The notes under the pieces were generated by a model that was not told where the DNA came from, made no database searches, and was given only the letters and a program-made list of their open reading frames with translations. A program made the position numbers and the translations under genes. Shown here piece by piece: positions 40,246-61,167 of a stretch of DNA of 64,000 nucleotides (its first letter is position 1; each line of letters opens with the position of its first letter). The stretch spans positions 4,768,001 through 4,832,000 of the forward strand of contig OZ242214.1 in the NCBI GenBank assembly GCA_965206595.1, in the 5' to 3' direction. Source of the DNA: Candidatus Latescibacterota bacterium (lineage in GTDB: Bacteria; Latescibacterota; UBA2968; UBA8231).

Positions 40246-43200
40246 ATGACATCATTTATAAACAGCCTGCCCGAAAAAACCCCGGAACCGGGTCAGCTGG
40301 TCCTGGTTCGCTCCCGCCGCTGGTTGGTCGAGGAGGTGGTGGCCAACGGAGCCGCATCCCCGCTCGTGCGTCTCGCCTGCGCTGACGACGACGCCCAGGG
40401 CCAGAGCCTCGAGGTCTACTGGGACTACGAGATCGACCGCCTGATCCTCGAGGAAGAGGGCTGGGCCGATCTCGCGTCGAAAGGGTTCGACTCGCCGCGG
40501 CAGTTCGCCGCCTTCCTCCACACCCTGCGCTGGAACTGCGTCACGGCGACCAACCCGAACCTGTTCCAGTCCCCCTTCCGCGCCGGCATCAAGATCGACG
40601 CCTACCAGATGGAGCCCCTGCGCAAGGCCCTGCGTCTGCCCCGGGTGAACCTGTTCATCGCCGACGATACCGGGCTCGGGAAGACGATCGAGGCCGGGCT
40701 GATCGCCCGGGAGTTGCTGTTGCGGAGGAAGGCGAAGACCATCGTCGTCTCGGCTCCGCCCTCGGTGATCGAGCAGTGGAGGGGGGAGTTGGAGGAGCGC
40801 TTCGGACTGGTGTTCGAGATCCTCGACCGGCGCTACCTGGCGCGGGTTCGCCGCGAGCGGGGATTCGGGGTGAACCCGTGGCGGACGCACAGCCGCTTCC
40901 TGGTTTCTCACAACCTGCTGATCGATCCGACCTACGCCGACCCGATGCGGGAATGGCTGGGCGGGTTGCTGCCGGGGAGTCTGCTGATCCTCGACGAGGC
41001 CCACCACGCGGCGCCTTCCAGCGGCGGCCGCTACGGGATCGAGACCAAGTTCACGCGCGCCATCCGGGATCTGTGCGGCCGCTTCGAACACCGGCTGTTC
41101 CTCTCCGCCACGCCTCACAACGGCCACTCGAACAGCTTCTCCACCCTGCTGGAACTGCTCGACCCGTACCGGTTCACGCGCGGGGTGAAGATCCGCGGCA
41201 AGGGCGAACTCGAGGAGGTGATGGTGCGCCGCCTCAAGGAGGACATCCGCGAGATCCAGGGAGGGTTCCCAAGGCGGATCGTCGAGAGGATGGGGATCGA
41301 CAACCTGCCGCCCGAGGCTCCCGAGATCCTTCTGTCGGAACTGCTCGATCAGTACCGCACCGCCCGGGAGGAGCGGCACGCGACGACCTCGCTGAGGTCG
41401 CAGGCCGCGGCCGGGCTGCTCGTCGTCGGGCTGCAGCAACGGCTGCTCTCATCCATAGAAGCCTTCGCCCGCACCCTCCAGGTGCATCGCCGCACCGTAG
41501 TGAAGCAGTGGGAAAAGCAGCAGGAAGCGGAAGCCGAAATCCCCGAATCCGAAGAACAGGACAGCCTGCTGCGGACGGCGCCGGACTCCGACGACGAGCG
41601 GGGGGAGTGGGAAGAGGATCAGCTCGAAGCCGAAGAAGAAGCCGAGGTCGAGGCGATGACGGTCGCGGCCGAGGCAGGGGGACTGCGAGACGAAAGGACG
41701 GAGGAGCTGTGGAACCGGGAGCAGAAGCTCCTGGACCGCATGGAGAAAATCGCCGAGGAGACGCGGTACCTGCCCGACGCCAAGGTGCGGCGGCTGATCC
41801 AGTGGATTCGAGAGAACCTCTGCCCCGGGCTCCCTTCCTTCGGCGAGATAGCGCAGGGTGAGCCGGCCCCGTGGAACGATCGCCGGGTGCTGATCTTCAC
41901 CGAGAACCGGGAAGGGACGAAGCGCTATTTGAAGACCATCCTGGAGGAGGCGATCGCAGGGACAGACCTGGCAGACGAGCGCATCGAGGTGATAGACGGA
42001 CTGGTCAGCTCGACCAATCGGCGGGAGATCCAGAAGCGCTTCAACACCCACCCCGCCAAGGACCCGCTGCGCATTCTGCTGGCGACGGACGCGGCGCGGG
42101 AAGGACTGAACTTCCAGGCGCACTGCACCGACCTGTTCCACTTCGACCTCCCCTGGAACCCGGGACGGATCGAGCAGAGGAACGGCCGTATCGACCGCAA
42201 GCTGCAGCCCGCCCCGGAAGTGCGCTGCCACTACTTCGTCCTGCCCCAGAGAGCGGAGGACCGCGTGCTCGAGGTGCTTGTCCGGAAGACGGAGAGGATC
42301 AAGCGGGAGTTGGGCAGCCTGTCGAAGGTTATCGACGACGACGTCGAAAGGCTGCTTCGCGGAGGCATCCGCCACGCGAACGCCGGCCGCCTCGCCGAGG
42401 AGATCGAGAGGGCGGACCTGGATGAGAATCGGAAACAGGTAGCAGAAGAGGAATTGGAAGGCGCCCGCGAGCGCCGGGAGGATCTGAAGGTGCAGATCTC
42501 CCGCTGCCAGACGCTGCTCCAGAACTCGCGCGGATGGGTCCGCTTCGAAGAGGGTGCCTTCCGGGATGCGCTTTCCTGCTCGCTGGAGCTGCTGGGGGCG
42601 AATCCGCTGGAGGAGACCCGCGACCAGGAGGGACGGCGGGTGTGGAGATTCCCGGCTCTCGACCAGAAAGCGGAAACCGACGCCAGCTGGTCGTCCACGC
42701 TCGATACGCTGCGGCAGCCTAAAAAGCCCGATCAAAAGGTGACCGAGTGGCGCCAGCAGGCGCCGATCCGCCCGGTCGTTTTCGAGGACCCCGGCGCGGT
42801 CACCGAGGACAGCGTGCATCTGCACCTCGAGCAGCGCGTGGCACAGCGGCTGCTGGCCCGGTTCCGGGCCCAGGGCTTCATCTACCACGACCTGTCGCGG
42901 GCCTGCCTGGCGCAGGCCAGGGATTCGATACCGCGGGTGATCCTTCTCGGACGGCTCTCCCTGTTCGGCCGCGGCGCCGAGCGCCTGCACGAGGAGCTGG
43001 TTCCGGTTGCCGCAAGATGGGTCGAGGCCTCGAAGCGGAAAGGGCCGCTCAGGGCGTACGCCCGGGAGACGGAGCTGCGAACGCTCGACCTGCTCGAAGA
43101 AGCGCTGACCGGTGATGGGATGCGGGTGCCGCACGAGACGATCCGGCGCCGGCTTCTGGAGACCGCCGCCCGGGATATCGAGGAACTGCTGCCGCAGCTG

Positions 43201-43539
43201 GAACCCCGGGCCGAGGAGCTGGCCGCTATCGCCGTCGAGCGCCTGACCGAGCGCGGCAACCGCGAGGAGCAGGATCTGCGGGAGACGCTCGAGCGCCAGC
43301 GCGCCCGGGTGATCGAGGAGCTGGAAAATTACGATCGCAAGTTCACTCAGCTGACCCTGGACTTCAACGCGGAGGAGAAAGGCCAAGTCGAGGCGAACAT
43401 GCGTGGGTGGCGTCATCGTCTCGAACAGTTCGAGAAGGACCTTGAAGTGGAGCCGGCCCGCGTGCGCGAGTTCTACGAGGTCCGGGCGACCCGGGTGGAG
43501 CCGGTCGGCCTGGCCTACCTGTGGCCGGAGACCAACTGA
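40246..43539 (+). CDS. drmD: DISARM SNF2-family helicase DrmD
   Basis: ADDTGLGKT, DEAH, SATPH, WNPGRIEQRNGRIDR; first gene of the drm cluster. Confidence 0.9.
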   Translation: MTSFINSLPEKTPEPGQLVLVRSRRWLVEEVVANGAASPLVRLACADDDAQGQSLEVYWDYEIDRLILEEEGWADLASKGFDSPRQFAAFLHTLRWNCVTATNPNLFQSPFRAGIKIDAYQMEPLRKALRLPRVNLFIADDTGLGKTIEAGLIARELLLRRKAKTIVVSAPPSVIEQWRGELEERFGLVFEILDRRYLARVRRERGFGVNPWRTHSRFLVSHNLLIDPTYADPMREWLGGLLPGSLLILDEAHHAAPSSGGRYGIETKFTRAIRDLCGRFEHRLFLSATPHNGHSNSFSTLLELLDPYRFTRGVKIRGKGELEEVMVRRLKEDIREIQGGFPRRIVERMGIDNLPPEAPEILLSELLDQYRTAREERHATTSLRSQAAAGLLVVGLQQRLLSSIEAFARTLQVHRRTVVKQWEKQQEAEAEIPESEEQDSLLRTAPDSDDERGEWEEDQLEAEEEAEVEAMTVAAEAGGLRDERTEELWNREQKLLDRMEKIAEETRYLPDAKVRRLIQWIRENLCPGLPSFGEIAQGEPAPWNDRRVLIFTENREGTKRYLKTILEEAIAGTDLADERIEVIDGLVSSTNRREIQKRFNTHPAKDPLRILLATDAAREGLNFQAHCTDLFHFDLPWNPGRIEQRNGRIDRKLQPAPEVRCHYFVLPQRAEDRVLEVLVRKTERIKRELGSLSKVIDDDVERLLRGGIRHANAGRLAEEIERADLDENRKQVAEEELEGARERREDLKVQISRCQTLLQNSRGWVRFEEGAFRDALSCSLELLGANPLEETRDQEGRRVWRFPALDQKAETDASWSSTLDTLRQPKKPDQKVTEWRQQAPIRPVVFEDPGAVTEDSVHLHLEQRVAQRLLARFRAQGFIYHDLSRACLAQARDSIPRVILLGRLSLFGRGAERLHEELVPVAARWVEASKRKGPLRAYARETELRTLDLLEEALTGDGMRVPHETIRRRLLETAARDIEELLPQLEPRAEELAAIAVERLTERGNREEQDLRETLERQRARVIEELENYDRKFTQLTLDFNAEEKGQVEANMRGWRHRLEQFEKDLEVEPARVREFYEVRATRVEPVGLAYLWPETN

Positions 43540-43541
43540 GC

Positions 43542-46500
43542 ATGGCCAAGCTGGACCCACAGGTACTCAGGCACCTCGAGTGGATCGGCTTCGTCCAGCC
43601 GAGCGGTCTCGTCGTCTCCGCGCCGGCGCTGGTGCGCGCAAGTGCCATCCTCGACCGGCAGGACGCCGAAGGGCAGCGGCGGCTGCGCGACTGCGTCGAG
43701 GAAAGGGCGTTCCCGCAGGACCGCGATCCGGAGCCGTGGTTGCCCGACTTCGAGACCTTCGCGAGGACCGTTCTGGAGTGGAACTTCTCGCCGAGAGGCT
43801 ACGCCGGCACCACAGAGAACCCCATCCCTGAGGACCTGATAGTGACCGCCGCGGATGGGGAAACCCTCGCCCCCGACTTCGCCGTCCGCGAGCGCAGCCC
43901 CGGGGAAGGAGAGTCCGACTGGCAGCTCCTCGTCCAGGTCCTGGAGCCGGGGCAGGCATTCGACAAGGAAGTGAAGGGCTCCGGAACGCTTGAAGCCTCC
44001 CCGCACAGCAGGATGGAGCGGCTCCTGCGGCGCACCGAAGTGAAGGCCGGCCTGCTGTTCAACGGCCTGGCAATCCGGCTGATCTCGGCGCCTCGGGGCG
44101 AAAGCTCCGGCTGGATGGACTTCCGCGTGGCGGAGATGGTGCAGACCTCCGGCCGGCCGATCTGCGCCGCCATGCGGCTGCTCTTGAAGGAAAGCCGGCT
44201 GTTGGCCATGCCCGCCCCGCAGCGGCTGGCGGCCCTGCTCGTGGACAGCCGCAAGTTTCAGAACGAGGTCAGCGAGCGGCTGGCTGAGCAGGTGCTGCAC
44301 GCCCTCTACGAGATGCTGCGGGGATTCCAGGCGGCGCACGACGCCTCGCACGGAGAGCTGCTGCGACGGACCCTCGCTGAGAATCCCGACCGCGTCTACC
44401 ACGCCCTGCTGACCATGATCCTGCGGCTCGTGTTTCTGCTCTACGCCGAAGAGCGGGACATGCTACCCAAGGACGGGACCTTCCAGCGCTACTACTCCCT
44501 CCTGGGACTGTACGAGCGCCTGCGCGAGGACGCGGCCCTGTTCCCCGACACCATGGACCAGCGCTACGGCGCCTGGGCGCAGCTGCTGGTGCTGTTCCGC
44601 CTGATCCACGACGGCGCCGAGACCGGGGCGATGAGCCTTCCCAGGCGGCACGGCGTCCTCTTCGACCCGGACCGGTTTCCGTTCCTCGAGGGTCGGCCGG
44701 ACATGGTGGCGCGCCAGATTCACGAGCGCATCGAGCCGCCCCTGGTAGCGGACGGCACCATCTACCGCGCCCTGGAGAAGCTGCTGGTGCTCGACGGCGA
44801 GCGGATCTCCTACCGGGCCCTCGACGTGGAGCAGATCGGCTCGGTCTACGAGACCATGATGGGGTTCCGCCTGGAGACCGCGAGCGGAAGGTCCTTGGCG
44901 ATAAAGGCCGCGAAGAAGCAGGGCGCACCCACGACCGTGGACCTGGAGGCGCTCGCGGCGGAACCGGGAACCCGGCGTGACAAGTGGTTCCGGGACCGCG
45001 CCGACCGGAAGCTCGGCGACAAAGTGAAGAAGGCCGTGAAAGAGGCGGAGAGGCTGGAGGACCTGCACGCGGCCCTCATGCCGGTGATCGAGGTCGACGC
45101 CACGCCCGACCTCGTGCCGCAGGGGGCGATGGTGCTGCAGCCCAGTGAAGAGAGGCGCCGCTCCGGTTCGCACTACACGCCGCGCGAGTTGACCGAGCCG
45201 ATCGTGCGCACGACGCTGGAGCCGATTCTGGGGCGGCTGCAGGGAGGGAACGGAAATCCCCCGCGGCCCGAACAGATCCTCGACCTCAAGGTCTGCGACC
45301 CGGCCATGGGCTCGGGCGCGTTTCTGGTTGAGGCTTGCCGCCAGCTTGGAGACGCCCTCGTCGAGGCTTGGCGCGCCCACGGCGAGGTGCCGGAAATCCC
45401 GCCCGACGAGGACGAGGGGATCTTCGCCCGCCGGCTGATCGCCCAGCGTTGCCTCTACGGGGTGGACCGCAACCCGATGGCGGTCGACCTGGCCAAGGTT
45501 TCGCTATGGCTCGCCACTCTGGCCAAGGATCACGCGTTGACCTTCGTCGATCATGCCCTGAGAGATGGGGATTCCCTGGTCGGCCTGTCCCGAAAGCAGA
45601 TAGAGACGTTTCACTGGGAACGGGAGGAATCGCCCTCGTTCATGCTGGGCTTCGAGACCATGCGGGTTCGGGATCAGGTGCAAGAGGCCGCCGAGTTGCG
45701 AGAGCTCATCCGGGAGGCGGGCGAGGAAACCGCCGACTGGGAGTTGCGCGACCTGTGGAACCGGGCGCAGTTCGCGTTGCGCAAGGTGCGGCTTTTCGGA
45801 GACCTGGCCACGGCGGCCTTTTTCGACGGGCCTAAGCCGAAGCAGCGGGAGGCGAAGCGCCGCGAGTACGGCGAAGCGATATTCGGAGGCAAAGCCGAGC
45901 AGTACCTGGATTGGCTCGACGAGCGCCGCAAGGTAGAACCGCCCCTGGCGCCGTTCCACTGGGAGGTCGAGTTCCCGGAGGTGTTCGACCGCGAAAACCC
46001 TGGGTTCGACGCAATCGTGGGGAATCCGCCGTTTCTTGGTGGTACAAAGATCTCGTCAACTCTCGGCAAGAACTTCCTTGATTGGCTGCTTGGCTTGCAC
46101 GAAGGATCCCATGGTAACGCCGATCTCGTAGCCCATTTCTTTCGACGTGCATTCTATCTCGTCCGCACGGACGCCAGCTTCGGTCTAATCGCCACCAACA
46201 CCATCGCCCAAGGGGACACGCGTTCGACCGGCCTGCGCTGGATCTGCAACCATGGGGGAGAGATCTATCACGCGCGCCGGCGGGTCAAATGGCCAGGGGT
46301 CGCAGCAGTAGTTGTGAGCGTTTTGCACCTTTGGAAGGGATCGTCGTTAAGTGTTCTTAAGAAACTCGACGAAAAGGAAATGGATATGATTACGGCATTC
46401 CTTTTCCACCGAGGAGGTCACGATGATCCGAGCCGGCTCTCGGCGAATGTCGGCAAGAGTTACACGGGCTCTAAGGTTTATGGTCAAGGCTTTACCTTCG

Positions 46501-47570
46501 ACGATGCGGACAAGAAGGGCGTCGCATCATCGCTCGCGGAGATGCGTCGAATCATCGAGCAGAACCCTCGTAACCAAGAGGTGATTTTCCCCTACATTGG
46601 AGGGGAGGAGGTAAACACAAGCCCAACCCATTCTAACCACCGGTACGTCATCAACTTCCACACCTTTCCGCTGCGCCGGGAGGACTTGGGCGAACGGTGG
46701 CTGAACGCAGACCCGAATCAGTGTCGTGAATGGCTTCAGAGGGGAATCGTGCCCCTCGACTATCCCGGACGCGTAGCGTCAGACTGGCCGGAACTGCTGG
46801 CCGTTGTGGCGGCGAGAGTGAAACCAGATCGCGCCAAGCTCACACAAAACCCCATTGGACGAAAGCGCGCTGCCTTCTGGTGGCAGTACGGATCGCATGC
46901 CAATGAACTATACAGCGCCATTACCGGCATGAAGCGCGTGTTGGCTAACTCGCAAGTCAGCCAAAGAGTGCAGTTCGCTTTCTTGCCAGCAGAAATGGTG
47001 TACTCACATGCCTTGAATGTATATCCAATTCAAACTTACGCCGCTTTTTGCGCACTCCAGTCCCGCCCCCACGAGACCTGGGCACGGTTCTTCGGGTCGT
47101 CAATGAAGGATGACCTCCGCTACACCCCTACAGATTGTTTCGAGACATTCCCTTTCTCCGATGGCTGGGAAACCGACCCGGCCCTCGAAGTCGCAGCCCA
47201 AGCCTACTACGATTTCCGCGCCAGCCTTTTGGTCCGGAACAACCAAGGGCTGACCAAGACCTACAACCGCTTCCACGACCCTGACGAAGACCACCCCGAC
47301 ATCGCCAAGCTCCGCGACCTGCACGCCGCGATGGACCGGGTCGTACTCGATGCCTATGGTTGGAACGACATCCCCACCGACTGCGAGTTCCTCCTCGACT
47401 ACGAGATCGACGAGGAAGAGTGGGGCAAACGCAAGAAGCCCTACCGCTACCGCTGGCCCGACGACATCCGGGACGAAGTGCTGGCGCGGCTCCTCGAACT
47501 GAACGCCAAGCGCCCCAAACGAGAGACAGGTACCAAACCAGCGTACTGGGAAGACGACGATGACGAATGA
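43542..47570 (+). CDS. drmMI: DISARM class I DNA adenine methyltransferase DrmMI
   Basis: SGSHYTP, DPAMGSGAFL, GNPPF (N6 methyltransferase), TRD-like C-terminal region, RYTPTDCFETFPF; starts 2 bp after drmD. Confidence 0.88.
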   Translation: MAKLDPQVLRHLEWIGFVQPSGLVVSAPALVRASAILDRQDAEGQRRLRDCVEERAFPQDRDPEPWLPDFETFARTVLEWNFSPRGYAGTTENPIPEDLIVTAADGETLAPDFAVRERSPGEGESDWQLLVQVLEPGQAFDKEVKGSGTLEASPHSRMERLLRRTEVKAGLLFNGLAIRLISAPRGESSGWMDFRVAEMVQTSGRPICAAMRLLLKESRLLAMPAPQRLAALLVDSRKFQNEVSERLAEQVLHALYEMLRGFQAAHDASHGELLRRTLAENPDRVYHALLTMILRLVFLLYAEERDMLPKDGTFQRYYSLLGLYERLREDAALFPDTMDQRYGAWAQLLVLFRLIHDGAETGAMSLPRRHGVLFDPDRFPFLEGRPDMVARQIHERIEPPLVADGTIYRALEKLLVLDGERISYRALDVEQIGSVYETMMGFRLETASGRSLAIKAAKKQGAPTTVDLEALAAEPGTRRDKWFRDRADRKLGDKVKKAVKEAERLEDLHAALMPVIEVDATPDLVPQGAMVLQPSEERRRSGSHYTPRELTEPIVRTTLEPILGRLQGGNGNPPRPEQILDLKVCDPAMGSGAFLVEACRQLGDALVEAWRAHGEVPEIPPDEDEGIFARRLIAQRCLYGVDRNPMAVDLAKVSLWLATLAKDHALTFVDHALRDGDSLVGLSRKQIETFHWEREESPSFMLGFETMRVRDQVQEAAELRELIREAGEETADWELRDLWNRAQFALRKVRLFGDLATAAFFDGPKPKQREAKRREYGEAIFGGKAEQYLDWLDERRKVEPPLAPFHWEVEFPEVFDRENPGFDAIVGNPPFLGGTKISSTLGKNFLDWLLGLHEGSHGNADLVAHFFRRAFYLVRTDASFGLIATNTIAQGDTRSTGLRWICNHGGEIYHARRRVKWPGVAAVVVSVLHLWKGSSLSVLKKLDEKEMDMITAFLFHRGGHDDPSRLSANVGKSYTGSKVYGQGFTFDDADKKGVASSLAEMRRIIEQNPRNQEVIFPYIGGEEVNTSPTHSNHRYVINFHTFPLRREDLGERWLNADPNQCREWLQRGIVPLDYPGRVASDWPELLAVVAARVKPDRAKLTQNPIGRKRAAFWWQYGSHANELYSAITGMKRVLANSQVSQRVQFAFLPAEMVYSHALNVYPIQTYAAFCALQSRPHETWARFFGSSMKDDLRYTPTDCFETFPFSDGWETDPALEVAAQAYYDFRASLLVRNNQGLTKTYNRFHDPDEDHPDIAKLRDLHAAMDRVVLDAYGWNDIPTDCEFLLDYEIDEEEWGKRKKPYRYRWPDDIRDEVLARLLELNAKRPKRETGTKPAYWEDDDDE

Positions 47571-47692: not shown

Positions 47693-49849
47693 ATGACTGA
47701 AAAAATCCTTCAGGATCCTCCCGGTGTAGTGGATTACATCGACCAGATTCGTCAACTCGCAGATGACAATAGGTCCTCTCTCGGTTTTCTCCCCGCAAGT
47801 GCCTATACAGAAGCCGCAATGAAAGGACACCTCTGGATCGCCATCGACAGGAATACGAAGAAACTACGTGGTCATCTGTTCTTTGGCGGAAGCTATCCCC
47901 ACCTCAAGGTCTTCCAAGTCCATGTTCTCCCTGAGTATCGATTTGAAGGCGTAGGAGGAAGACTGGTCGGGGCGCTCAAGGAATACGGGGAAGACAACAG
48001 TTGGTTGACCATCCGTTCCAGAGTGGCTTCGGACTTGGAGGCGAACAAATTCTGGCAGGGGTCGGGGTTTCGAATTGTACGCCAGATCCCTGGAAAATCG
48101 AAAAGGACGATAAACGTTTATGAACTCGAACTGGACGTCCCATCCCTTTTCGGTAGGAGACAGTTTCCCGGGGCATCCAGTGGTGATGACGGAAGGCAAA
48201 TAGCCTACGCCAGGCCCCTGTTGCCCACGCCCTCCTATGTGATCGATCTGAACGTATTCTTCGATGCTGTGAGGCAACGGGATGCGGGAGAGTCAGCTTT
48301 CATATTCTCCTCGGCTCTAAACGGCGAAATACGTGTCAGGGTCACCCCTGAATTCAGGAGGGAACTGGAACGTCGCTCGCCAGATGTGTCCGACGACCCT
48401 GTTCTGGAATTTGCCAGAACCCTCCCGACCTTGCCAGAAATATCGCCAGGAATACTGGCGCGTCTGATTTAGGATCTGAAAGACAAACTTTCGGTGGCTG
48501 ATACAAGAACGGGTAAGTGGGCCGCAAATGAGCAATCGGATCTTGTTCACTTGGCATCGTGCATTCATCATAAAGCCTTCGGTTTTGTAACTCGCGACGC
48601 CAGAATTCTTCGACACAGCGGGACACTTCTGGAAAAGTACAGCCTGAGAGTTATATCACCCCTTGACCTCAGGGAACCGTTCGGGGAGGTGGACACATAC
48701 CTGCCTGAGTTCTCGGTAGCTGTTGGCCAAGAGGAAATCAGGGTTTCAAATCTTGATGAAGGCGATGCGGGGGCCGAGAGCTTCCTGAGAGAGATGGGGA
48801 TTGATGAAACCGCTATATCCTATTGTCTTGCCGCTGGAACAACGCAGTCTCCGAGGACGAGATTGGTTGTACGAACGGGGGAGGGAATAGTAGGAATAGG
48901 ATCATGGGAGGCAAGAACCAGTTTGTCCAGGAAGGCGGACGCATACCTATATGTCGACGAGGGGAACTGGAATGCTGACAGAGCGATCGATTACCTGTTG
49001 GAATCCATGACCAACCGGGGGCATCAGGGACAACTATTCTCGTTCGACCTGAAGACGGGGCCAGGGCAAAGACTGACCCGAGAAGTGGCAATCCGCAGGG
49101 GATTCCAGCCGATTCGAGGTGAAGAAGGAAATGCTTTACAGAGTCTCAGGAAGGTGTCCCATAGAGGAGTAATTACAAATGACAATTGGGAGTCCTTCAG
49201 AAATGACTTCAAGGAAGCTACTGGTTTTGAACTTGCTCACAGCATGCCAAAGCACGATGAGTTGTCCAACACCGGCATTGTCTTTAATAACAGATCTTGG
49301 CCTATAACGCTTTCCCTTTTCGACTTCGAAACCTTGGTGTCTCCCGGCTCGATCATTTGTCCCGGCCGAGGCGGCGTAATTGTGCCCATTAGGGAGAGAT
49401 TTGCCCATGAATTGGTACCCCCGACCGATAGTCAGACATCATTTCTTCCTGGTAAGGAAGCTGCATTGCGGTTGGAAAGGGCCTATTTCTGCCGGGTCGG
49501 GACCCAGAGAATGGTCGGACGGGGCACAGTGTTGGTCTTCTATGTCAGCGGCAGACAGAAGGCGGCCGTTGCCATTGCGAGGGCTACCTTCTGTGACAAG
49601 CTGACGAAGACCCAAGCGGTATTGAACCTCCGGAGGCAAGGAGTATTATCGGAGGAGGAAATAGGCCAGAGGGCAAATTCTAATGGTGAGCTCACGGCGA
49701 TGACCTTTGATAACCTGTTCCTTTTCCGCAGAAGTATTCCTTACCGGGACCTGAAGCAGATGGGATGTGTGGGAGGAGCGAATCTGGTTACAGCACAGCG
49801 ACTTTCCCATGAAGCACTTTCCGCAATCGTGGAAAGAGTATTGGATTGA
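47693..49849 (+). pseudogene. GNAT-PIN-GNAT-like-EVE/ASCH multidomain protein interrupted by a single in-frame TAG (48470-48472)
   Basis: ORFs 47567..48472 and 48494..49849 share a frame. GNAT (V.PEYRFEGVG, ANKFW...GF); PIN acidic residues on both sides of the stop (VIDLN, ELE | SDLVH, VTRD); PUA-like C-terminus (IVPI...F, RAYF, VFYVS). Confidence 0.75.
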
Positions 49850-49856
49850 AGAGTTC

Positions 49857-50318
49857 ATGGACCAAGCCATAATTTCTCTTAAGCCTCAATACGCGAACCT
49901 GATTCTGTCTGGGGAAAAGACGGTAGAACTCAGGAATAGAACTGTTAGATTGAAATCTGGAACCACGATTTGGATATACGCAACCCAACCTGTGGGCAGG
50001 ATAGTCGCTAATGCGAAAATAAAAACGGTTTCTCATGGAATCCCTGCCGAAATATGGGACCGCTACGGTGAAAAAATCTGCATCGAAAAAACACACTTCG
50101 ATTTCTACATAGGAAATAGTCGGCAGGTATCGGCCTTGGTCCTTTCCTCGGTAAAGAGAATCCAGGATCCTTGCACCCTGGAAAACATTCGTCAAGTCGT
50201 TGAGGATTTTCACCCCCCACAGTTTTATTCTCATCTACCTTCGGATGACCTGCTATTCGGAACTCTGAACAGTTTAGCGAACCATTCTGTTTCACGCCGG
50301 CGAAGGTCGTCCGGGTAA
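49857..50318 (+). CDS. ASCH domain protein
   Basis: IISLKPQYANLILSGEKTVELR, IYATQPVG, PPQFYS. Confidence 0.88.
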   Translation: MDQAIISLKPQYANLILSGEKTVELRNRTVRLKSGTTIWIYATQPVGRIVANAKIKTVSHGIPAEIWDRYGEKICIEKTHFDFYIGNSRQVSALVLSSVKRIQDPCTLENIRQVVEDFHPPQFYSHLPSDDLLFGTLNSLANHSVSRRRRSSG

Positions 50319-50502: not shown

Positions 50503-50807
50503 CTCCTGCAAGATGCTCCACGCCTACGGAGGCCGCTGCCTCCTCATCCCCGCCACCAACCACGAGGGTCTCCTCGATACCGCCATCTGGCGGGGCTTCG
50601 AGGAAGTGCTTTCCTCAAGCCGCCTACGCTTCGCTGTGCCGGCTACTTGCGGTCAAGCTGCGCGGTGGACGACGGGGTTTCGAGGTGGTGGAGATCGCCG
50701 GGCGGGGCCGGTTCAAGGGCGCCAGTCATGCCGACGTCGGGCGCTTCGTGCGCCGGGCAGTGAAGGAGATGGTGCTGGAAGGTGAGGCTCCGGGTGCAGC
50801 ACCTTGA
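50503..50807 (+). pseudogene. Frameshifted C-terminal relic of a classical AAA ATPase
   Basis: Across frames: LLQ/ML..YGGRCLLIPATNHEGLLDTAIWRGFEEVL (degraded second region of homology) then RLLAVKLRG...GASHADV.RFVRRAVKEMVL. Confidence 0.6.
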
Positions 50808-50874
50808 GTCGGCGCGACAGTCGGACAACTTCCCCTGGCGCGTAACGTACTTGCGGAACAGGGGTGGGTGACAA

Positions 50875-51255
50875 ATGGCTGAGAACGACTGGTACGAAGA
50901 ACTTCCGGAGGACTGCCCGCCAAGAGACGCGGGGGCGCCCGTTTCTGAACCGCACTTCCGGGTCGTTCGGACGATTCCCCCGACTGACTGCGATTTCGTT
51001 TCCCAGAGAGCACTCTACCCGGAACGACCGTTCTCGGTACCTGAGTGCCAGGCACGGGCGGTATCGCTTTTCCCCGTTCGCAAGAGCGCCAGTGGGGTCT
51101 TGAAATTGCCACGGTTCAAGGGTGGAGCGATCGTTTCCCTTACTCTTCCTCCAACCGCTGGCGTTACCAAGAAGACCGGTGGCAAGCCGGGCCACGTGTC
51201 CTGGTGGCGCCGCGCCAACTTCGACCCGGTCCCATTGGCCTTGCCAGTTAGCTGA
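50875..51255 (+). CDS. Small hypothetical protein, candidate ADP-ribosyltransferase/RES-like fold
   Basis: 126 aa; LP..CPP, HFR, DF.S, C.A.AVSLF, GHVSWW; 15 bp before the next gene. Confidence 0.55.
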   Translation: MAENDWYEELPEDCPPRDAGAPVSEPHFRVVRTIPPTDCDFVSQRALYPERPFSVPECQARAVSLFPVRKSASGVLKLPRFKGGAIVSLTLPPTAGVTKKTGGKPGHVSWWRRANFDPVPLALPVS

Positions 51256-51270
51256 AGCGGGGGCTCAACA

Positions 51271-52440
51271 ATGCGCAGATCCGTCCGGCTTGTGCGAACC
51301 CTGATCTACTACGATGGACCTCAGGTGATCGTGGCCAGTGATGAGGTGGGACAACTCTATCTCGGATTGCTGGTCCAGGCCCCGGACGGCGGGGATGCAT
51401 ACCTGCTGACGCCCATCTCAGCAAGTCGGTTGTATCAACTGGAGACCGGTATTCTGGACGTCCGCGGTGCGCTTACGATCCCTGAAGTTGACGAGTACTA
51501 TACTGCGGCGCTCACTGGTGACACCGAAGTGGAGGACCGCTTGCCGCTGTCTCCAGTGGGTCACCCCCCTGAGAAGTGGCTCCCCGAGCCCGACCTTCGA
51601 GTGTCGGACTTCGTGGAGCCGGACGCTGTGACGCAGGAGGTAACGTCCCGTGGCAAGGCCGTCTTGCACCTTCGGATGAGCCCTCCCGAATCCCACATCG
51701 CGGCACAGATAGGTGTTACCAACCTGGCCATATGTCTGTCACTTTTCCAGAATCTGGTTGGCCAGGCATATCGGAAGGTTCTTCGCGATGTCGGCCCCGA
51801 TACACGAAAAATGATTGCCGATGAGTCTAACTGGATGATGGACGTCTCTGGCTTTTCCCACGGGTCCTTCACCATCCATTTGCAGTCGAGGGCGGAGCCT
51901 GACTTGCTCGGATACGTAGGTCTGTCCCGGGCCCTGGATCGGGTCGATGCCCTGACCGAAGGCATCGATGCACCGGAGGCAGGACTTTCGACTATGCGTC
52001 AGAACAGGGGTCACCTCGTAGCTGCCTATCGGCGATTGCTGAAGTTCCTGGTTGACTCGGAATCGGCCCTTGGATACCAGTGGTCGGCACCGGACCGGAC
52101 GTTCTCATCCACCAGGGCGATTTCTCGAGATTCCGCAGAGAGACTCTACAGCTTGATCGTGGCGCAGAAGGACTTGACGGTCGAGGAGGTCAGTCTCAGG
52201 GGTGTCTTCATACACGTCAACGTGGAATCGGGCCTCTGGACCCTGCGGGACGACGAAGGGATCTCGCATCACGGCCGTTCCGCCAGTGACTTGCAAGGCG
52301 CGCTGAGTGGTTTGATCGTGGACACTCAACGATACGAGGTGGACTGCATTGAACGAGTTGAAGAGACTGGAGTTGGCGAGATCCGGACAAGTCTTGAGTT
52401 GAAGGGGATCGAGCCACTCGAAGGGATAACTACTGCATGA
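51271..52440 (+). CDS. DUF6575-like N-terminal domain protein
   Basis: 389 aa; L.YYDGPQV....D..G..YLG....YL..PIS..RL..L..G..DVR, LPEPD, GSF; family recognised from memory. Confidence 0.55.
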   Translation: MRRSVRLVRTLIYYDGPQVIVASDEVGQLYLGLLVQAPDGGDAYLLTPISASRLYQLETGILDVRGALTIPEVDEYYTAALTGDTEVEDRLPLSPVGHPPEKWLPEPDLRVSDFVEPDAVTQEVTSRGKAVLHLRMSPPESHIAAQIGVTNLAICLSLFQNLVGQAYRKVLRDVGPDTRKMIADESNWMMDVSGFSHGSFTIHLQSRAEPDLLGYVGLSRALDRVDALTEGIDAPEAGLSTMRQNRGHLVAAYRRLLKFLVDSESALGYQWSAPDRTFSSTRAISRDSAERLYSLIVAQKDLTVEEVSLRGVFIHVNVESGLWTLRDDEGISHHGRSASDLQGALSGLIVDTQRYEVDCIERVEETGVGEIRTSLELKGIEPLEGITTA

Positions 52441-52558
52441 GTGCCGGGGAGAACAGCGGTTGTGAGTCGCCCCAGAGGAGCCTCTGGGCCAGCCTGGCGA
52501 GCTCGACTGGTCCGCGATCGCTACGGCACTGGTTACTTCTAACGCGGAGGAAGATGGG

Positions 52559-53131
52559 ATGGTAGAGTACAAGACAGGCAACATCCTCGACGAGGATGTG
52601 GAAGCCCTCGTAAACACGGTCAACTGCGTCGGCTTCATGGGCAGGGGAATCGCCCTGCAGTTCAAGAAGTCCTGGCCTGATAATTTCAAGGCATATGAAG
52701 CTGCCTGTCGCAAGAAGGAAGTTCAGCCTGGACGCATGTTCGTGTTCGAAACGGGACAGTTGGTTTCGCCTCGCTACATCATCAACTTCCCGACCAAGCG
52801 GCACTGGCGGGGCAAGTCCAGGATCGAAGACATCGACTCGGGTCTGAATGCGCTGATTGCCGAAGTCCGGTCTCGGAAAATCTGCTCCATCGCGATTCCT
52901 CCCTTGGGCGCTGGGCTCGGCGGACTTGCCTGGGCAGATGTACGGGTGCGGATCGAAAGGGCAATGCAGGACCTTCCGGACGTACGGACGATAGTGTTCA
53001 AACCCCATGATGCTCCTGATCCGGTGGAACCAGCAACTGCGAGAAGGGTGCCCGGGAGGCAGCAAATACCATCGGACAAGCCATCCATTCCCGCAGGCAA
53101 TGCCAATGGAATCAAAGCTCAAACATCTTGA
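52559..53131 (+). CDS. DarG-type macrodomain (ADP-ribose glycohydrolase) lacking the C-terminal domain
   Basis: ALVNTVNCVG.MGRGIALQFK, IINFPTKRHWR..S, SIAIPPLGAGLGGL.W; homology ends at about aa 165; GGAGG RBS. Confidence 0.85.
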   Translation: MVEYKTGNILDEDVEALVNTVNCVGFMGRGIALQFKKSWPDNFKAYEAACRKKEVQPGRMFVFETGQLVSPRYIINFPTKRHWRGKSRIEDIDSGLNALIAEVRSRKICSIAIPPLGAGLGGLAWADVRVRIERAMQDLPDVRTIVFKPHDAPDPVEPATARRVPGRQQIPSDKPSIPAGNANGIKAQTS

Positions 53132-53534
53132 ATTGATCCAAGGAGTGGTCAACCGCCTTGCGACCGACTCGTTCCGCGTGAAGGGGTGGATCGTGGTTCT
53201 GGTCACTGCCTTGTTCGTCCTGTTGGCGATAGAGGATCGCCTCCATGCTGCCTACATCGCATTGGCACCTGTCCTCGTCTTCTGGGGCCTCGACGGCTAC
53301 TACCTGTGGCAGGAGCGCCTGTTCCGGGCGCTTTACGACCGTGTCCGGGTGGTGGACGAAAGTGAAGTCGACTTTTCAATGGCCACCGCTGCGTTCCGAA
53401 CGGGTTGGAAGCGCTCTTGGCTTGGCTCAACCTTGTCGATAACGCTGGTTCCGTTCTACGGAGCTCTCATCATCGCGATTGTTCTGGTCGTATTCTACCT
53501 TCCAGGAGAACAAGCTATTAATAACGGCTCGTAG
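53106..53534 (+). CDS. Small multi-TM protein of the type found next to ThsB-like TIR genes
   Basis: KLKHLELIQGVVNRLA..SF..KGW, FWGLDGYYL.QERLFRALYD.VR; three hydrophobic segments. Confidence 0.7.
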   Translation: MESKLKHLELIQGVVNRLATDSFRVKGWIVVLVTALFVLLAIEDRLHAAYIALAPVLVFWGLDGYYLWQERLFRALYDRVRVVDESEVDFSMATAAFRTGWKRSWLGSTLSITLVPFYGALIIAIVLVVFYLPGEQAINNGS

Positions 53535-53637: not shown

Positions 53638-55215
53638 ATGCGTTTTTTCAGCACTGCTGGTCCGGTCAAGCCCGAAAAGCACCACTGCATCCCGCCGTTG
53701 GACCGGCTGAACCTCGCCGAGGTGCTCGCGTTGGTGCGGGACGAGAAGTACTTCGTTTTGCATGCGCCGCGTCAGACGGGCAAGACGTCGGTCCTCCTGG
53801 CGCTGCGCGACCTGCTCAACGCCGGAGTGGCCTATCGCTGCGTGTACGTCAATGTCGAGGCCGGGCAAACCGGGCGCGAAGACGTGGAACAGGTCATGCG
53901 CACCATTCTGGGAACGTTGGCGTTGCGAGCGAGCGTGACCCTGGACGACGAATTTCTGCTCGCGGTCTGGTCGGACATCTTAGCCGAGTTCGGTCCGCAC
54001 GCCGCTCTGCAAGTGGCGTTGACGCGCTGGTCCAAGGCCGACCCGAAGCCCTTGGTGCTGCTCATCGACGAAATTGATTCCTTGATCGGCGATTCCTTGC
54101 TGTCGGTGCTGCGCCAGTTGCGGTCGGGATACGATCTGCGGCCAGAGGGTTTTCCGCAGAGCGTGGTGCTGTGCGGGGTGCGCGACGTGCGCGACTATCG
54201 CATTCAATCCACCGCGGAGAACGCCATCATCGCCGGTGGCAGCGCGTTCAATATAAAAGCGGCATCCCTGCGGTTAGGGGACTTTTCCCGGGAGGAGGTG
54301 CGGGCGCTGCTCGGTCAGCACACCGAGGAGACGGGGCAGGTGTTTACCCCCGAGGCGCTGGAGACGGTCTGGACGCAGACACAAGGGCAGCCGTGGCTGG
54401 TCAACGCGCTGGGCGACGAAGCCTGTTTCCAGGGCGAATGTGCGCAGGCGTGGCATCGTCCGGTCACCGCCGAAGCCATCCGCGCCGCCCAGGAGCAGCT
54501 CATCCTGCGGCGCGAGACGCATCTGGACCAGTTGGCCGACAAACTCAAGGAGGAGCGGGTTCGCCGGGTTGTCGAGCCGCTGTTGAGCGGCGGAGAGGAA
54601 CGCCACTTCGCCGACCGCGACATCGAGTATGTGCGGGATCTCGGGCTGGTCGCACAAGACCTGCCGTATCGCATCGCCAACCCGATCTATGCCGAGGTGG
54701 TGCCGCGCGAACTGACGTGGGTGGTGCAGGGGGAATTCGAGCAGGACGCCGCCTGGTATGTGGATGCCGGGGGGGGGCTGGACGTGGTCAAGCTGCTGTC
54801 GGCGTTCCAGGAGTTCTTCCGCGAGCACTCCGAACACTGGGTCGAGCGATTCGAGTACAGGGAAGCCGGCCCCCAGTTGCTGCTGCAGGCGTTTTTGCAG
54901 CGGATCGTCAACAGCGGCGGTCGCATCGAGCGCGAGTACGGATTGGGGCGGATGCGGACGGACTTGCTGATCGTGTGGCCGCAAGGAGAGCGGACGCGCC
55001 GGTTCGTCGTCGAGTGCAAGGTGCTGCACAGGAGCTTGGAGCAGACGATTGCCGAGGGATTGGAACAGACGTTCGAATACATGGATCGCTGCGGAGGGGA
55101 GGCGGGCCACCTGGTGATTTTCGACCGGCGTGAAGGTCGGCGTTGGGCGGACAAACTGTTTCACTGCCGCCGGGTGTCGGACAGCGGGGTCGAGATCGAT
55201 GTGTGGGGGATGTGA
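53638..55215 (+). CDS. AAA-like ATPase with C-terminal PD-(D/E)XK nuclease-like domain
   Basis: Walker A APRQTGKT, Walker B LLIDEID, REYGLGRMRTDLLI...VVECK. Confidence 0.8.
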   Translation: MRFFSTAGPVKPEKHHCIPPLDRLNLAEVLALVRDEKYFVLHAPRQTGKTSVLLALRDLLNAGVAYRCVYVNVEAGQTGREDVEQVMRTILGTLALRASVTLDDEFLLAVWSDILAEFGPHAALQVALTRWSKADPKPLVLLIDEIDSLIGDSLLSVLRQLRSGYDLRPEGFPQSVVLCGVRDVRDYRIQSTAENAIIAGGSAFNIKAASLRLGDFSREEVRALLGQHTEETGQVFTPEALETVWTQTQGQPWLVNALGDEACFQGECAQAWHRPVTAEAIRAAQEQLILRRETHLDQLADKLKEERVRRVVEPLLSGGEERHFADRDIEYVRDLGLVAQDLPYRIANPIYAEVVPRELTWVVQGEFEQDAAWYVDAGGGLDVVKLLSAFQEFFREHSEHWVERFEYREAGPQLLLQAFLQRIVNSGGRIEREYGLGRMRTDLLIVWPQGERTRRFVVECKVLHRSLEQTIAEGLEQTFEYMDRCGGEAGHLVIFDRREGRRWADKLFHCRRVSDSGVEIDVWGM

Positions 55216-55820: not shown

Positions 55821-57053
55821 ATGACGGAAACGTCCACGACATCTGAGTTCGATCCAAGGATCATCACCCGGGTCGCTCTGCGAAACTACAAGAGCATCGC
55901 CGCCTGCGACGTCGAGCTAACGCCGCTGACGATCCTGGTGGGCGCAAACGGCGCCGGCAAGAGCAACTTCCTCGACGCCCTCCGCTTTACCGCCCAGGCC
56001 CTGCGCTTCTCCCTGGATCACGCCCTGCACGAGCGCGGCGGCATCAACGAAGTCCGGCGGAGGTCCCGAGGTCATCCGAATCACTTCGGCGTCCGTCTCA
56101 ATTTCCGGCTTCCGGAGGCAACTGGCTGGTACGTGTTCGAAGTAGGCGCCCGGCCGAAAGGGCGCTACGTCGTGCGGAAAGAAGAGTGCGTGGTCAAGTC
56201 CGCGGACAGCGACCGGACGGGACTCTTCCGGGTAGAGAACGGGCGTCCGATCACCACTTCATTCGCCCATCCGCCCGGGGCGGGAGACGACCGTCTCTAC
56301 CTCATGCAGGTAGCCGGTTACCCGGCGTTCCGTCCTGTCTACGACGCGCTCGCCGGGATGGGTTTCTACAACATCCATCCCGAACAAGTCCGGGATCTGC
56401 AGTCCCCGGATCCCGGCGACCTCCTCAAGCCAGACGGAAGCAATATCGCCAGCGTGCTCGCGAACCTGAAGTCCGAGGCGCCGGAGAGTGCGGCGCGCGT
56501 CGGTAAGTATCTCTCCAAGGTAGTCCCGGGAACGGTGGACGTGGAGTCGAAGACGGTGGGACCCAAGCTGACGTTGGAGTTTCGCCAGGAAGTCCGCGGC
56601 GACCCTCATCCCTGGCGTTTCCTCGCCAACAACGTTTCGGACGGAACGTTGCGCGTTCTCGGAGTGCTCATTGCCCTCTACCAGGGCGCCGGCATGGAGT
56701 CGGGAAAAGCGAAGCTGATCGGCATCGAAGAGCCGGAGGGCTCCCTCCATCCAGCCGCAGCGGGTGTGCTGACCGACGTGCTGCGCGAGGGGAGCGAACG
56801 CGCGCAAGTGATCGTCGCCAGCCACAGCGCGGACCTTCTGGATCGGGAGACAATTCCGTTGGAATCCATCCTGGCCGTGGTCTCGGAGGATGGAGAGACG
56901 CGGCTAGCCCCGCTGGACGAGACGAGTCGGGCCATGCTTCGAGACCATCTTTTCACTGCAGGTGAGCTGCTACGCATGGATCAGTTGATACCCGATCCCG
57001 CGCTCTCGAGGCCGAACCAGCTAAGTATGTTCGGCGGCGAAACTGACACCTGA
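55821..57053 (+). CDS. ABC-type (AAA_21-like) ATPase
   Basis: NYKSI, GANGAGKSN, signature VSDGT, Walker B IEEPE..LHP, ASHS. Confidence 0.88.
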   Translation: MTETSTTSEFDPRIITRVALRNYKSIAACDVELTPLTILVGANGAGKSNFLDALRFTAQALRFSLDHALHERGGINEVRRRSRGHPNHFGVRLNFRLPEATGWYVFEVGARPKGRYVVRKEECVVKSADSDRTGLFRVENGRPITTSFAHPPGAGDDRLYLMQVAGYPAFRPVYDALAGMGFYNIHPEQVRDLQSPDPGDLLKPDGSNIASVLANLKSEAPESAARVGKYLSKVVPGTVDVESKTVGPKLTLEFRQEVRGDPHPWRFLANNVSDGTLRVLGVLIALYQGAGMESGKAKLIGIEEPEGSLHPAAAGVLTDVLREGSERAQVIVASHSADLLDRETIPLESILAVVSEDGETRLAPLDETSRAMLRDHLFTAGELLRMDQLIPDPALSRPNQLSMFGGETDT

Positions 57054-57054
57054 C

Positions 57055-57627
57055 ATGGTGAAAATCGCCGCTATTGTCGAAGGGGACGGCGAAGTGGAGG
57101 CCGTCCCCGTGTTGATTCGGCGGATCAGCACGGAAGTTTCCCCACTTGCCCCGCCGAATGTGTTGAGACCGATCCGCGTGCGTCGCCAGAGAATTCTCAA
57201 GGAGGGCGAGCTGGAACGATACATGAGCCTGGCAGCGGCCCGCGTCGGTGACGGGGGTTGCATATTGGTTTTGCTGGACGCCGAGGGAGAATGCCCGGCT
57301 GAACTCGGTCCAGATATCCTGCAACGCGCCCGCGATGCCAGACCGGATCGCCAAATCGAAACAGTGTTGGCGAAGTACGAGTATGAGACCTGGTTTGTGG
57401 CGGCGTCCGAGTCGATCGCAGGCTCGGGGATTTCACAGGATGTATCTCCCCCGCCAAATCCGGAATCCATCCAGGGCGCCAAGGAGTGGCTACGCCGAAT
57501 GCTTCCGGCCTACAGTCCGACAGCTGATCAAGCTGCCTTGACCGCTCGCTTTGACATGGAGCTGGCGCGCCAACGCTCCCCCTCATTTGACAAGATGTGG
57601 CGGGCGGTGGCCAAGCTGTTGCAATGA
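57055..57627 (+). CDS. DUF4276 family (TOPRIM-like) protein
   Basis: IVEGDGE..AVP.LIRR, VLLDAE..CP, EYETWF.A, PE....AK.WL, Y....DQ, SPSF; 1 bp after the ATPase. Confidence 0.8.
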   Translation: MVKIAAIVEGDGEVEAVPVLIRRISTEVSPLAPPNVLRPIRVRRQRILKEGELERYMSLAAARVGDGGCILVLLDAEGECPAELGPDILQRARDARPDRQIETVLAKYEYETWFVAASESIAGSGISQDVSPPPNPESIQGAKEWLRRMLPAYSPTADQAALTARFDMELARQRSPSFDKMWRAVAKLLQ

Positions 57628-60700: not shown

Positions 60701-61167
60701 GCGCCCTGGACCGGGGGTTCGCCGGGGCCCTGGTAACGCTCGCTCGACACGGGCGGCCAGAGCTGACACCGGCATTGGAGGTGAAGCGGATCGGCGAGGT
60801 GCGCGCGGAGTTGGAACGCTTGCTGCTCGATGCCTTCCTCGAACGGGTGCGGCAGCAGCCGATCACCGACGAGGAAGAGCGCGAGCAGTATTTGCGCAGC
60901 GTGCAGAACCGCGTCGTCGACCTGCTCGACTCCTGGACCAAGGTGATCGACGACTACCGGTCGGCCGGAGTCGAGGTCCAGTATCAGCGCTACGAAATCC
61001 CGGGGCTCCGGCATCCCCGGCCGCTGCTTCGCGAAATCCTGGACAAGGAATTCGAAACCGAGCATCACGCGAAGTTCCGGGCCAACCGTTCCATGAGAGA
61101 TGTCGAACCCAGCGTAAACCTGTTCCTGGAAGACCTTGGTGGATTCCGGAGAAAAGCGGACAGATGA
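57760..61167 (+). CDS. drmA: DISARM SF2 helicase DrmA
   Basis: FPTGGGKTEAY, MRYTLRLLT.DQ, CPWC zinc motif, QDELH, ASTAT, QATSRIGR. Confidence 0.92.
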   Translation: MTDKPPNRQPGSSAEVRKRLIEALNLDLVGPWVGHSLADERLPGWRRPSNWYLAGFLIPSGSAADTSADADEDDDMDGEVPESAGLAEESTEEKKAAKKGYFPSSMGLSFLVPEDADSVEVAVSWGDYAPEEVEDDGGKALSVWQRTPRLEVLTLKLTESDDPVVCDVPESGGLLLHVVERKVVAQDLEKHIPPGTRSVSVFLVNNRTPVEADADRAYVFQPELKVSGRRPFVPRPDLRGTRADRWDDRVADLHYADTPSYATGHGVSADWEIIDGECRLLRTAWIPRAEVEKTETAEVPGVELTMEALGSLPDGAAAEDALRPLVDQYRTWGEARQAELEDLEGTRRETAAELLRLADLAADRIERGIAVLAADEDALDAFRVANRAVARALRQRLGIEEPGWRAFQLAFILLNLPGLIDPADKDRETVDLLFFPTGGGKTEAYLGLAAFAMVLRRLRHPDAQGCAAAGVSVIMRYTLRLLTLDQLARASGLVCALELERAEAGGRYGDWPFEIGLWVGKAATPNLLGKKGDGRSDSARTKVRQYKADPRGKPSPVPLESCPWCGDPFGPDSFALLPNDDQPRELRIVCMNFECDFSGDRALPILAVDEPIYRRLPAFLIATVDKFASLPWMGPSGALLGGADRYDGSGFYGATDTGRGTRLPAPLLPPDLVIQDELHLISGPLGTMAGLYEAAIEALCVRGTGGNAVRPKIVASTATVRQAQDQIQALFGRSLTQVFPAPGPDRRDSFFARTATSNVPGRVYVGIAAQGRNPKVIMRRAWLALMGTAQKAYVEAGGRPNKENPADPYMTVLGYFNSLKELGGARRILEEEIQNTIKGYGIRKRIGETTGLFRDRRTFSEVLELTSRVSTDKVAEARRRLECGFHENDRVDCAIATNMISVGLDIQRLGLMVVLGQPLRHDEYIQATSRIGRDDERPGLVVSLLNIHKPRDRSHYERFRHYHETFYRSVEVGSVTPFSARALDRGFAGALVTLARHGRPELTPALEVKRIGEVRAELERLLLDAFLERVRQQPITDEEEREQYLRSVQNRVVDLLDSWTKVIDDYRSAGVEVQYQRYEIPGLRHPRPLLREILDKEFETEHHAKFRANRSMRDVEPSVNLFLEDLGGFRRKADR

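Follow-up and report, generated by a model that had tools for sequence, protein, structure and literature searches.

A nonsense-inactivated GNAT-PIN-GNAT-PUA-like and ASCH gene pair in a class 1 DISARM locus of a Latescibacterota bacterium

The cassette and its inactivation

The stretch of DNA dealt with here, called the window below, comprises 64,000 nucleotides of the forward strand of Candidatus Latescibacterota bacterium (NCBI GenBank assembly GCA_965206595.1, contig OZ242214.1, positions 4,768,001 to 4,832,000), and the element in question is a pair of plus-strand genes, termed A and B, embedded in a DISARM defence locus. Gene A (47693..49849) runs in a single frame of 718 codons from an ATG at 47693 to a TGA at 49847-49849, and would specify an effector with the domain order GNAT-PIN-GNAT(degenerate)-PUA-like. 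Gene B (49857..50318, 153 codons) follows after 7 nucleotides, is intact, and encodes a stand-alone ASCH protein of 153 amino acids. The best overall explanation, with a probability of about 0.5, is that a widespread two-gene cassette, whose intact copies act as a defence module of the toxin/antidote type, is present here in a copy inactivated by a nonsense mutation. That it is a broken member of the (PIN)-GNAT-EVE + ASCH kind, corresponding to PDC-M11 of PADLOC, is very probable indeed. The cassette kind itself was already catalogued, and what appears to be new here is the four-domain architecture with an extra N-terminal GNAT.

The outline of the locus in a first-pass annotation made from the sequence, namely a 718-codon four-domain gene with an ASCH gene 7 bp further on, in a block of lower guanine plus cytosine (GC) content right behind the DISARM methylase gene, is borne out with respect to coordinates, domains and context. 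GC content is 0.46-0.53 over 47500-50500, while in drmD and over the 5′ two thirds of drmMI it is 0.66-0.70, and the gene immediately upstream (43521..47570, plus strand) is drmMI, for an MmeI/Eco57I-type N6-adenine methylase (PADLOC PDLC02643, 1285 bits; also recognized by Pfam). An alternative start for gene A, the ATG at 47567 that overlaps the drmMI stop codon, was considered and rejected, as the start at 47693 is the one with which most of the 34 homologues in the alignment agree. Counts of promoters and terminators predicted in 47300-51400 were not above those in shuffled sequence.

The lesion in gene A is a single base. At codon 260 (48470-48472, plus strand), within the PIN domain, sequence comparison finds an in-frame TAG where relatives have GAG for glutamate. 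An intact protein, P0006, is identical to the gene A product at 714 of 718 residues and has Glu at position 260, and a related locus with the same layout (L001, 95-98% nucleotide identity), in which 14 of the 2157 bases of gene A differ, has GAG at this codon. The variant base is T in Logan contigs of runs X3 and X5, which represent one sample that is possibly the window's own source, and G in Logan contigs of runs X6 and X8, which represent two other samples and studies; these contigs were assembled independently, with minor variants being beyond what contigs can exclude. Two sponge-metagenome runs, X1 and X2, contained only 6-7% of the sampled words. Given the Glu of P0006, the GAG of L001 and the division of the runs into those with T and those with G, the TAG is a real strain-level nonsense allele and not an assembly slip. 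The first-pass annotation had only hinted at this stop codon inside the PIN domain, by mentioning a ‘repaired allele’. Since the TAG removes half of that domain and everything beyond it, the cassette is expected to be inactive in this strain, whatever its mechanism. Programmed read-through or other recoding of the TAG was also considered and rejected, as relatives have GAG and the stops in other decayed copies differ in both codon and position.

Decay of gene A is not confined to the window. A scan of species-representative genomes yielded a set of 37 loci, and gene A is assessable in 36 copies, i.e. the window and 35 of these loci, with L031 and L035 being excluded due to contig ends that cut them. 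It is disrupted in six of the 36, each at a different place. In addition to the window, L009 has TAG at codon 85, L016 has TGA at codon 273 and L036 has two stops (TAA at 57 and TGA at 73 are listed among the stops of decayed copies) as well as a frameshift, while the first 104 residues of A are missing from L013 and only residues 523-714 are left in L028. Gene B is disrupted in one of 38 copies, by a stop in L033. Because the positions of the disruptions differ, the losses of A are independent and do not reflect recoding. The pattern of decay fits a costly or toxic A.

Pairing, distribution and catalogue status

A and B are an obligate pair with translational coupling. Gene B is directly downstream of gene A in all 37 loci; the stop of A and the start of B overlap by 1, 4 or 8 nucleotides in 26 of them, and a gap of at most 20 nucleotides is present in 10. 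In a metagenome-assembled genome of an alphaproteobacterium (L037, 9983-12559), A and B share one frame of 858 codons, either as a natural fusion or through a lost stop codon. The loci are distributed over at least six phyla, being from Latescibacterota, Acidobacteriota, Gamma- and Alphaproteobacteria, Spirochaetia, Desulfobacterota, NC10 and others.

At least 150 homologues of gene A were detected at E <= 0.001, with most of the 120 listed being about 720 amino acids long, and a profile search of the full library gave 875 representative clusters (50% identity) at E <= 1e-30. Among the best 150 of the 875, approximately nine in ten are 700-775 amino acids long and match over nearly their whole length. 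From the number of clusters, and from the lengths and coverage of these best 150, the four-domain form is common. A cultured carrier is Caulobacter rhizosphaerae KCTC 52515, on a plasmid of which gene A (product WP_163233878.1) is 30.6% identical and has an unannotated gene B behind it. With A as query, tblastn found no match at E <= 1e-5 in 50,697 phage records and one record in 72,556 plasmids.

Some neighbours of gene A in other loci hint at a link to the 3′ end of tRNA. Directly upstream of A in L006 (7090-9525) is an 812-amino-acid gene with a poly(A) polymerase/CCA-adding ‘head’ domain; an 815-amino-acid gene of the Caulobacter plasmid (L046, 6435-8882), annotated as NTP pyrophosphohydrolase, has the same position; and a PolyA_pol fragment is present downstream of A in L034 (9563-10279).

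With respect to catalogues, the PADLOC model PDC-M11B matches gene B over nearly the whole profile (E 3.1e-27). Four PDC-M11A models match gene A, the best with E 7.9e-14, and only in residues 536-709, i.e. the C-terminal domain. These models are 376-501 positions long, and in long-form relatives, such as the G012 protein, the match also takes in the PIN part. The arrangement of (PIN)-GNAT-EVE with an ASCH partner, near type I restriction-modification and other defence systems, was described by Bell, Wolf and Koonin (2020, BMC Biol 18:159), whose passage on these operons credits them to Iyer et al. (2013) and gives no module as characterized as of 2020. The connection to PIN-GNAT-EVE/ASCH neighbourhoods that the first-pass annotation had drawn was thus correct. 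In the relevant part of its source paper (Payne et al. 2024 preprint), PDC-M11 is an untested defence candidate. Shared with this kind are the order PIN-GNAT-PUA-like, the stand-alone ASCH gene that follows, and a location in or beside restriction-type defence systems. The sub-family of gene A differs in having an extra canonical GNAT, of about 150 amino acids, before the PIN domain, and in the absence of the acetyl-CoA motif from its internal GNAT.

Domains of protein A

The domains proposed for A in the first-pass annotation, an acetyltransferase, a PIN domain, a degenerate GNAT and a PUA-like domain, are all recovered, with support from Pfam across the family and from fold matches. The alignment used has 34 homologues, and boundaries were taken from AlphaFold models whose mean predicted local distance difference test score (pLDDT) is 80 for the C-terminal half and 76 for the whole protein. 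In the gene A product itself, the Pfam matches, to GNAT at 44-130 and to PIN_3 at 182-303, are both weak; across the 34 homologues, GNAT families are matched in 33 and PIN_3 in 31.

The N-terminal GNAT (amino acids 1-146; 47693..48130, plus strand) is identified by Pfam Acetyltransf_1/7/10, by the alignment, by a model pLDDT of 82-92 and by Foldseek similarity to Ard1 and RimI. It has a canonical RxxGxG/A acetyl-CoA motif, R83-F-E-G86-V-G88, whose R83 is kept in at least 90% of the 34 sequences, and the alignment also draws attention to N118, F120 and W121. A disordered linker (amino acids 155-179 in the AlphaFold model) separates it from the PIN domain (amino acids 182-326; 48236..48670, plus strand), whose acidic residues D185, E220 and D283 do not vary and which has either D or E at position 302. 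Against PDB sequences, a profile built from the PIN region of 24 sequences gave nothing meaningful, the best being E 0.047 to TFIIB, and with the whole-protein model in Foldseek, GNAT matches fill the list, with no PIN structure among the matches listed. The PIN assignment accordingly rests on Pfam, the conserved acids and the alpha/beta topology of the predicted structure.

The internal GNAT fold (amino acids 340-494; 48710..49174, plus strand) has no Pfam match and is recognized by VIA and Foldseek. Its match to RimI 5isv has VIA Z 11.4, and many other acetyltransferases match at VIA Z of about 11 and Foldseek E of about 3e-5. The R/QxxGxG/A motif A is absent from the family consensus in the 34-sequence alignment. 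That consensus, LYVDExHxxSDxAIDHxLES, has VDExHxxSDxAI between strand 4 and helix 3, with no conserved Gly. As the fold is that of a GNAT and motif A is without its conserved glycine, the label ‘degenerate GNAT’ is fair.

A small linker domain (amino acids 499-554 in the model) leads to the C-terminal PUA-like (ASCH/EVE-like) barrel (amino acids 560-718; 49370..49846, plus strand), for which PADLOC PDC-M11A, VIA and hhalign provide the evidence. Its best structural match is ZmASCH 5guq (VIA Z 16.7, root-mean-square deviation 2.2 Å over 138 residues), with EVE proteins scoring lower (2ar1, Z 11.9; THYN1, Z 11.3). F616-Y617-x-S619 is conserved, and the GxKxxExR motif is absent from the domain in the alignment. 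Comparison with the gene B family by hhalign gave a probability of 88.7%, and on this basis the domain is classed as a distant paralogue of gene B. Because it lacks the Lys/Glu/Arg pocket, it is likely to be a reader only; the active writer, if there is one, is likely to be the extra N-terminal GNAT, and not the internal one.

Gene B and its pocket

The product of gene B matches Pfam ASCH PF04266 (E 3e-8), and a profile from 24 homologues aligns at full length to ZmASCH, represented by PDB 5GUQ and related entries (E 1.1e-30; positions 2-131 of the profile with residues 8-136 of the chain). ZmASCH thus has full-length homology to gene B, and its fold is also that of the C-terminal domain of A. 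In all 24 sequences S7, K21, E24 and R26 are invariant, and so are G19, W39, Y41 and Q122. Residues 10-58 of gene B align to positions 10-58 of the NCBIfam YqfB model NF003443, so that the numbering of the two is collinear.

This is pertinent since a preprint on human EOLA1 (2026) assigns, in the portion drawn on here, the catalytic pocket for N4-acetylcytidine deacetylation to K21/T24/R26 in YqfB and K21/E24/R26 in EOLA1, and gives Ser/Thr7 as present throughout the TRIP4-like clade of ASCH domains. According to the same preprint, the genes of bacterial homologues frequently lie in restriction-modification operons, next to endoRNases, and a salvage role is proposed. Judged by its aligned residues, gene B holds the full pocket set of a demonstrated deacetylase, the EOLA1 triad plus Ser7, and the overall similarity is marginal. 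YqfB and EOLA1 have the same fold, with the pocket residues K21, E24 (T24 in YqfB), R26 and S7 at the same positions as in gene B, and differ in acting on the free nucleoside and in having no partner acetyltransferase-nuclease. ZmASCH (ZMO0922) is reported to be a Mg-dependent RNase of single-stranded RNA, with mutagenesis implicating Tyr47, Lys53 and Ser128. Its pocket residues Tyr47 and Gln127 correspond to the conserved Y41 and Q122 of gene B, while Lys53 and Ser128 are replaced in the window by G47 and F123, at positions that are variable across the family.

Genomic context

The window's cassette occupies a variable slot between drmMI and drmA, shared with HEC-01A/B and several other genes. 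The DISARM genes present, all on the plus strand, comprise drmD for an SNF2 helicase of DISARM class 1 (40246..43539; PADLOC DrmD, 1017 bits) and, beyond the slot, drmA plus drmB (57760..62954; PADLOC DrmA, 885 bits; DrmB, 279 bits), in addition to drmMI. For drmC there is no candidate plus-strand open reading frame (ORF) in 62955-64000, the 1 kb that is left after drmB before the end of the window.

DISARM class 1, recognized by a DrmMI of at least 55% identity, is present at 14 of the 37 loci, and at 23 the cassette is without it. At nine of the 14, the best DrmMI match ends at most 150 nucleotides from the start of A. Elsewhere the placement is looser: the DrmMI match ends 0.9-1.6 kb upstream of A in L004 and L013, the cassette is between drmD and drmMI in L016, it is 4.7 kb downstream of drmMI and of a different A lineage (41% identity) in L027, and the DISARM locus L028 retains just the A remnant. 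Among the loci without DISARM, A is directly behind other MmeI/Eco57I-type methylase genes in four (L008, L018, L025 and L032), and about 10 more have, within two ORFs, type ISP, GmrSD, Shedu, HNH, AAA_21/RloB, a retron-like reverse transcriptase, HipA or SbcCD. Because 23 of 37 loci are without DISARM and the position within DISARM varies, an embedded independent cassette fits better than a DISARM component. It is read as a cassette captured repeatedly by variable slots of restriction-type systems, with loci of MmeI-family methylases preferred, and not as a core component of DISARM.

Several features near the cassette are described here in their own right. The 3′ part of drmMI, 46000-47500, has 70-86% identity to L001, compared to 94-99.8% in the flanks, and the drop in GC starts here; judged from the sequences, this looks like an exchange of the target-recognition part of the methylase between strains. 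Within the slot is a second embedded cassette, HEC-01A plus HEC-01B (55821..57627, plus strand; ABC ATPase plus TOPRIM-like; PADLOC 519 and 236 bits), which co-occurs with the A/B cassette in L001, L016, L017, L027 and L028. HEC-01 gave no protection when tested, as reported in the pertinent part of the Payne et al. (2024) preprint. The interval that separates the ASCH gene from HEC-01, 50319-55215, has four ORFs, none with a PADLOC match: a minus-strand ORF at 50713..51195 and another at 52430..53206, both without a Pfam match, a gene for a DUF6575 protein (51271..52440, Pfam), and a gene for an AAA_22/AAA_16 ATPase of 525 amino acids (53638..55215, Pfam). The DUF6575 gene and the two minus-strand ORFs are common to the window and a Latescibacterota relative, L005, and the ORFs of this interval may be further embedded defence candidates. 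Upstream of drmD, 36166-40187 has three ORFs (262, 399 and 870 amino acids) without Pfam or PADLOC matches, of which the 870-amino-acid one is conserved in L001.

Mechanism and competing explanations

For the intact cassette, a mechanism in which A acetylates nucleic acid and cuts RNA, and B reverses or limits the mark, is offered tentatively, and more doubtfully than the assignment to toxin/antidote-type defence. Intact A would be the effector. Its C-terminal PUA-like domain would grip a flipped-out base of a nucleic acid, RNA or tRNA being the likeliest, with the N-terminal GNAT transferring an acetyl group to the bound substrate and the PIN domain cutting RNA, while the internal GNAT fold, its cofactor motif lost, would probably be a scaffold. 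B, with the Ser/Lys/Glu/Arg pocket of N4-acetylcytidine deacetylases, would remove or limit the acetyl mark, and the host would be spared until infection upsets the balance between A and B.

The more specific proposal, close to the acetylation write-read-erase idea of the first-pass annotation, is a reversible nucleobase acetylation system in which A would write, e.g., N4-acetylcytosine on RNA or DNA, read it via the PUA-like domain and couple this to PIN cleavage, with B as eraser; so stated, it is improbable. The part of the idea that finds support is at the level of residues, with no variation at S7, K21, E24 and R26 among the 24 gene B sequences and RxxGxG/A present in the N-terminal GNAT. 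By overall similarity B is not placed among the deacetylases, its score to the YqfB model being far below the cut-off, and ZmASCH is reported as an RNase. The toxin of DarTG ADP-ribosylates DNA, and its macrodomain antitoxin removes the mark. The parallel, a writer toxin with an enzymatic eraser as antidote, is an analogy only, since the folds and chemistry are unrelated and no membership is claimed.

A number of results count against a toxin/antidote-type defence module with a deacetylase as partner. Gene B scores 13 bits against NF003443, where the cut-off is 93, and so does not reach the score of the curated family; its profile finds the corresponding PDB chains at no better than E 0.087 for YqfB, 0.98 for 9kyf and 0.78 for EOLA1 5y7d. 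Its closest solved relative, ZmASCH, is reported as an RNase for single-stranded RNA and not as a deacetylase. The structure of the N-terminal GNAT resembles N-alpha acetyltransferases most (Ard1 TM 0.82, RimI; Foldseek), which is silent on a nucleobase substrate, and the best PDB matches of its profile are phosphinothricin acetyltransferase (E 1.2e-5) and, weakly, the GNAT of TmcA (E 2.2e-4), neither of which reveals the substrate. With A 4.7 times longer than B, six broken copies of the one versus one of the other is statistically uninformative. Six of the 35 loci that can be judged have no recognizable defence gene within two ORFs (L006, L010, L019, L034, L036 and L037), two of the 37 being on contigs too short to judge, and the figures for defence context are raw locus counts. 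Literature searches found no experimental test of the cassette, including of activity, toxicity or protection against phages.

A different way to see the same domains is as an abortive-infection toxin directed at tRNA, with the GNAT acetylating aminoacyl-tRNA at its amino group as TacT and AtaT do, the PIN domain cutting tRNA as VapC does, and the PUA-like domain gripping tRNA, while B would act without catalysis, as an antitoxin or regulator binding either A or the RNA that A binds, with no base acetylation involved. This is unlikely, but it accommodates the resemblance of the N-terminal GNAT to N-alpha acetyltransferases, the conserved acidic residues of the PIN domain, the tight coupling of A and B including their one fusion, and the CCA-adding/poly(A) polymerase-head gene upstream of A in L006 together with the PolyA_pol fragment downstream in L034; PUA-type domains are, moreover, typical of tRNA enzymes (general knowledge, and the pertinent text of Bell et al. 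2020). The catalytic domain families are those of the type II toxins TacT/AtaT (GNAT) and VapC (PIN). In those pairs, however, each toxin consists of a single domain and is accompanied by a small DNA-binding antitoxin, whereas protein A combines the two domains with a PUA-like reader and has an ASCH protein as its partner. Pfam finds no antitoxin gene of the RHH, DUF1778 or VapB type in the flanks, the ASCH gene being the only conserved partner, and the hydrolase-type pocket of B is complete in all 24 sequences, a feature that a mere binder would not need. A non-immune role, as improbable as the specific acetylation proposal, would have the pair either as a selfish addiction module that stabilizes the island, or with the PIN domain degrading tRNA and B salvaging the N4-acetylcytidine nucleosides released. 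The coupling of the two genes and the recurrent loss of A are what a toxin-antitoxin pair would typically show, salvage is what the EOLA1 preprint, in the portion cited above, proposes for bacterial ASCH proteins beside endoRNases in restriction operons, and the lack of protection by HEC-01 (Payne et al. 2024 preprint, as above) concerns a neighbouring cassette type. Against it stand the link to defence islands, which extends over at least six phyla, and the conserved acetyltransferase and reader domains, which neither variant explains.

The least probable of the explanations considered is that the cassette is an accessory arm against phages that have hypermodified DNA and evade DISARM or restriction: the two PUA-like domains would read the modified base and B would perhaps strip it, with the reading either triggering A or restoring the substrate for the neighbouring system. 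Its appeal comes from the 13 of 37 loci in which A is directly 3′ of an MmeI/Eco57I-type methylase gene, nine of them DrmMI and the others L008, L018, L025 and L032. It also comes from reports, cited here from the parts concerned, that EVE/ASCH domains are modification sensors in type IV restriction enzymes (Bell et al. 2020; END-nuclease preprint) and that BapA, a ZmASCH-like hydrolase, strips glucose from glucosyl-5-hydroxymethylcytosine DNA and widens the range of a defence glycosylase. However, PIN_3/VapC-like domains usually act on RNA, nothing in this analysis pointed to DNA binding, the cassette is also found far from any methylase (L019, L034 and L036), and its position inside DISARM varies (L016 and L027). 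The suggestion in the first-pass annotation that the module backs up DISARM fares similarly: the context is there, in the window and in 14 of 37 loci, but 23 of 37 loci are without DISARM, the position is not fixed, and the copy in the window is inactivated.

Implications

For this genome the finding is an ordinary one, in that its copy of gene A is a recent pseudogene. With respect to the family, this type of cassette has been noted since 2013 and is listed by PADLOC; its four-domain form is common and travels with class 1 DISARM across several phyla, and the write-read-erase idea is now a hypothesis at the level of residues. If it is true, the cassette would be an acetyl counterpart of DarTG that has been recruited repeatedly into DISARM and MmeI-type restriction loci.

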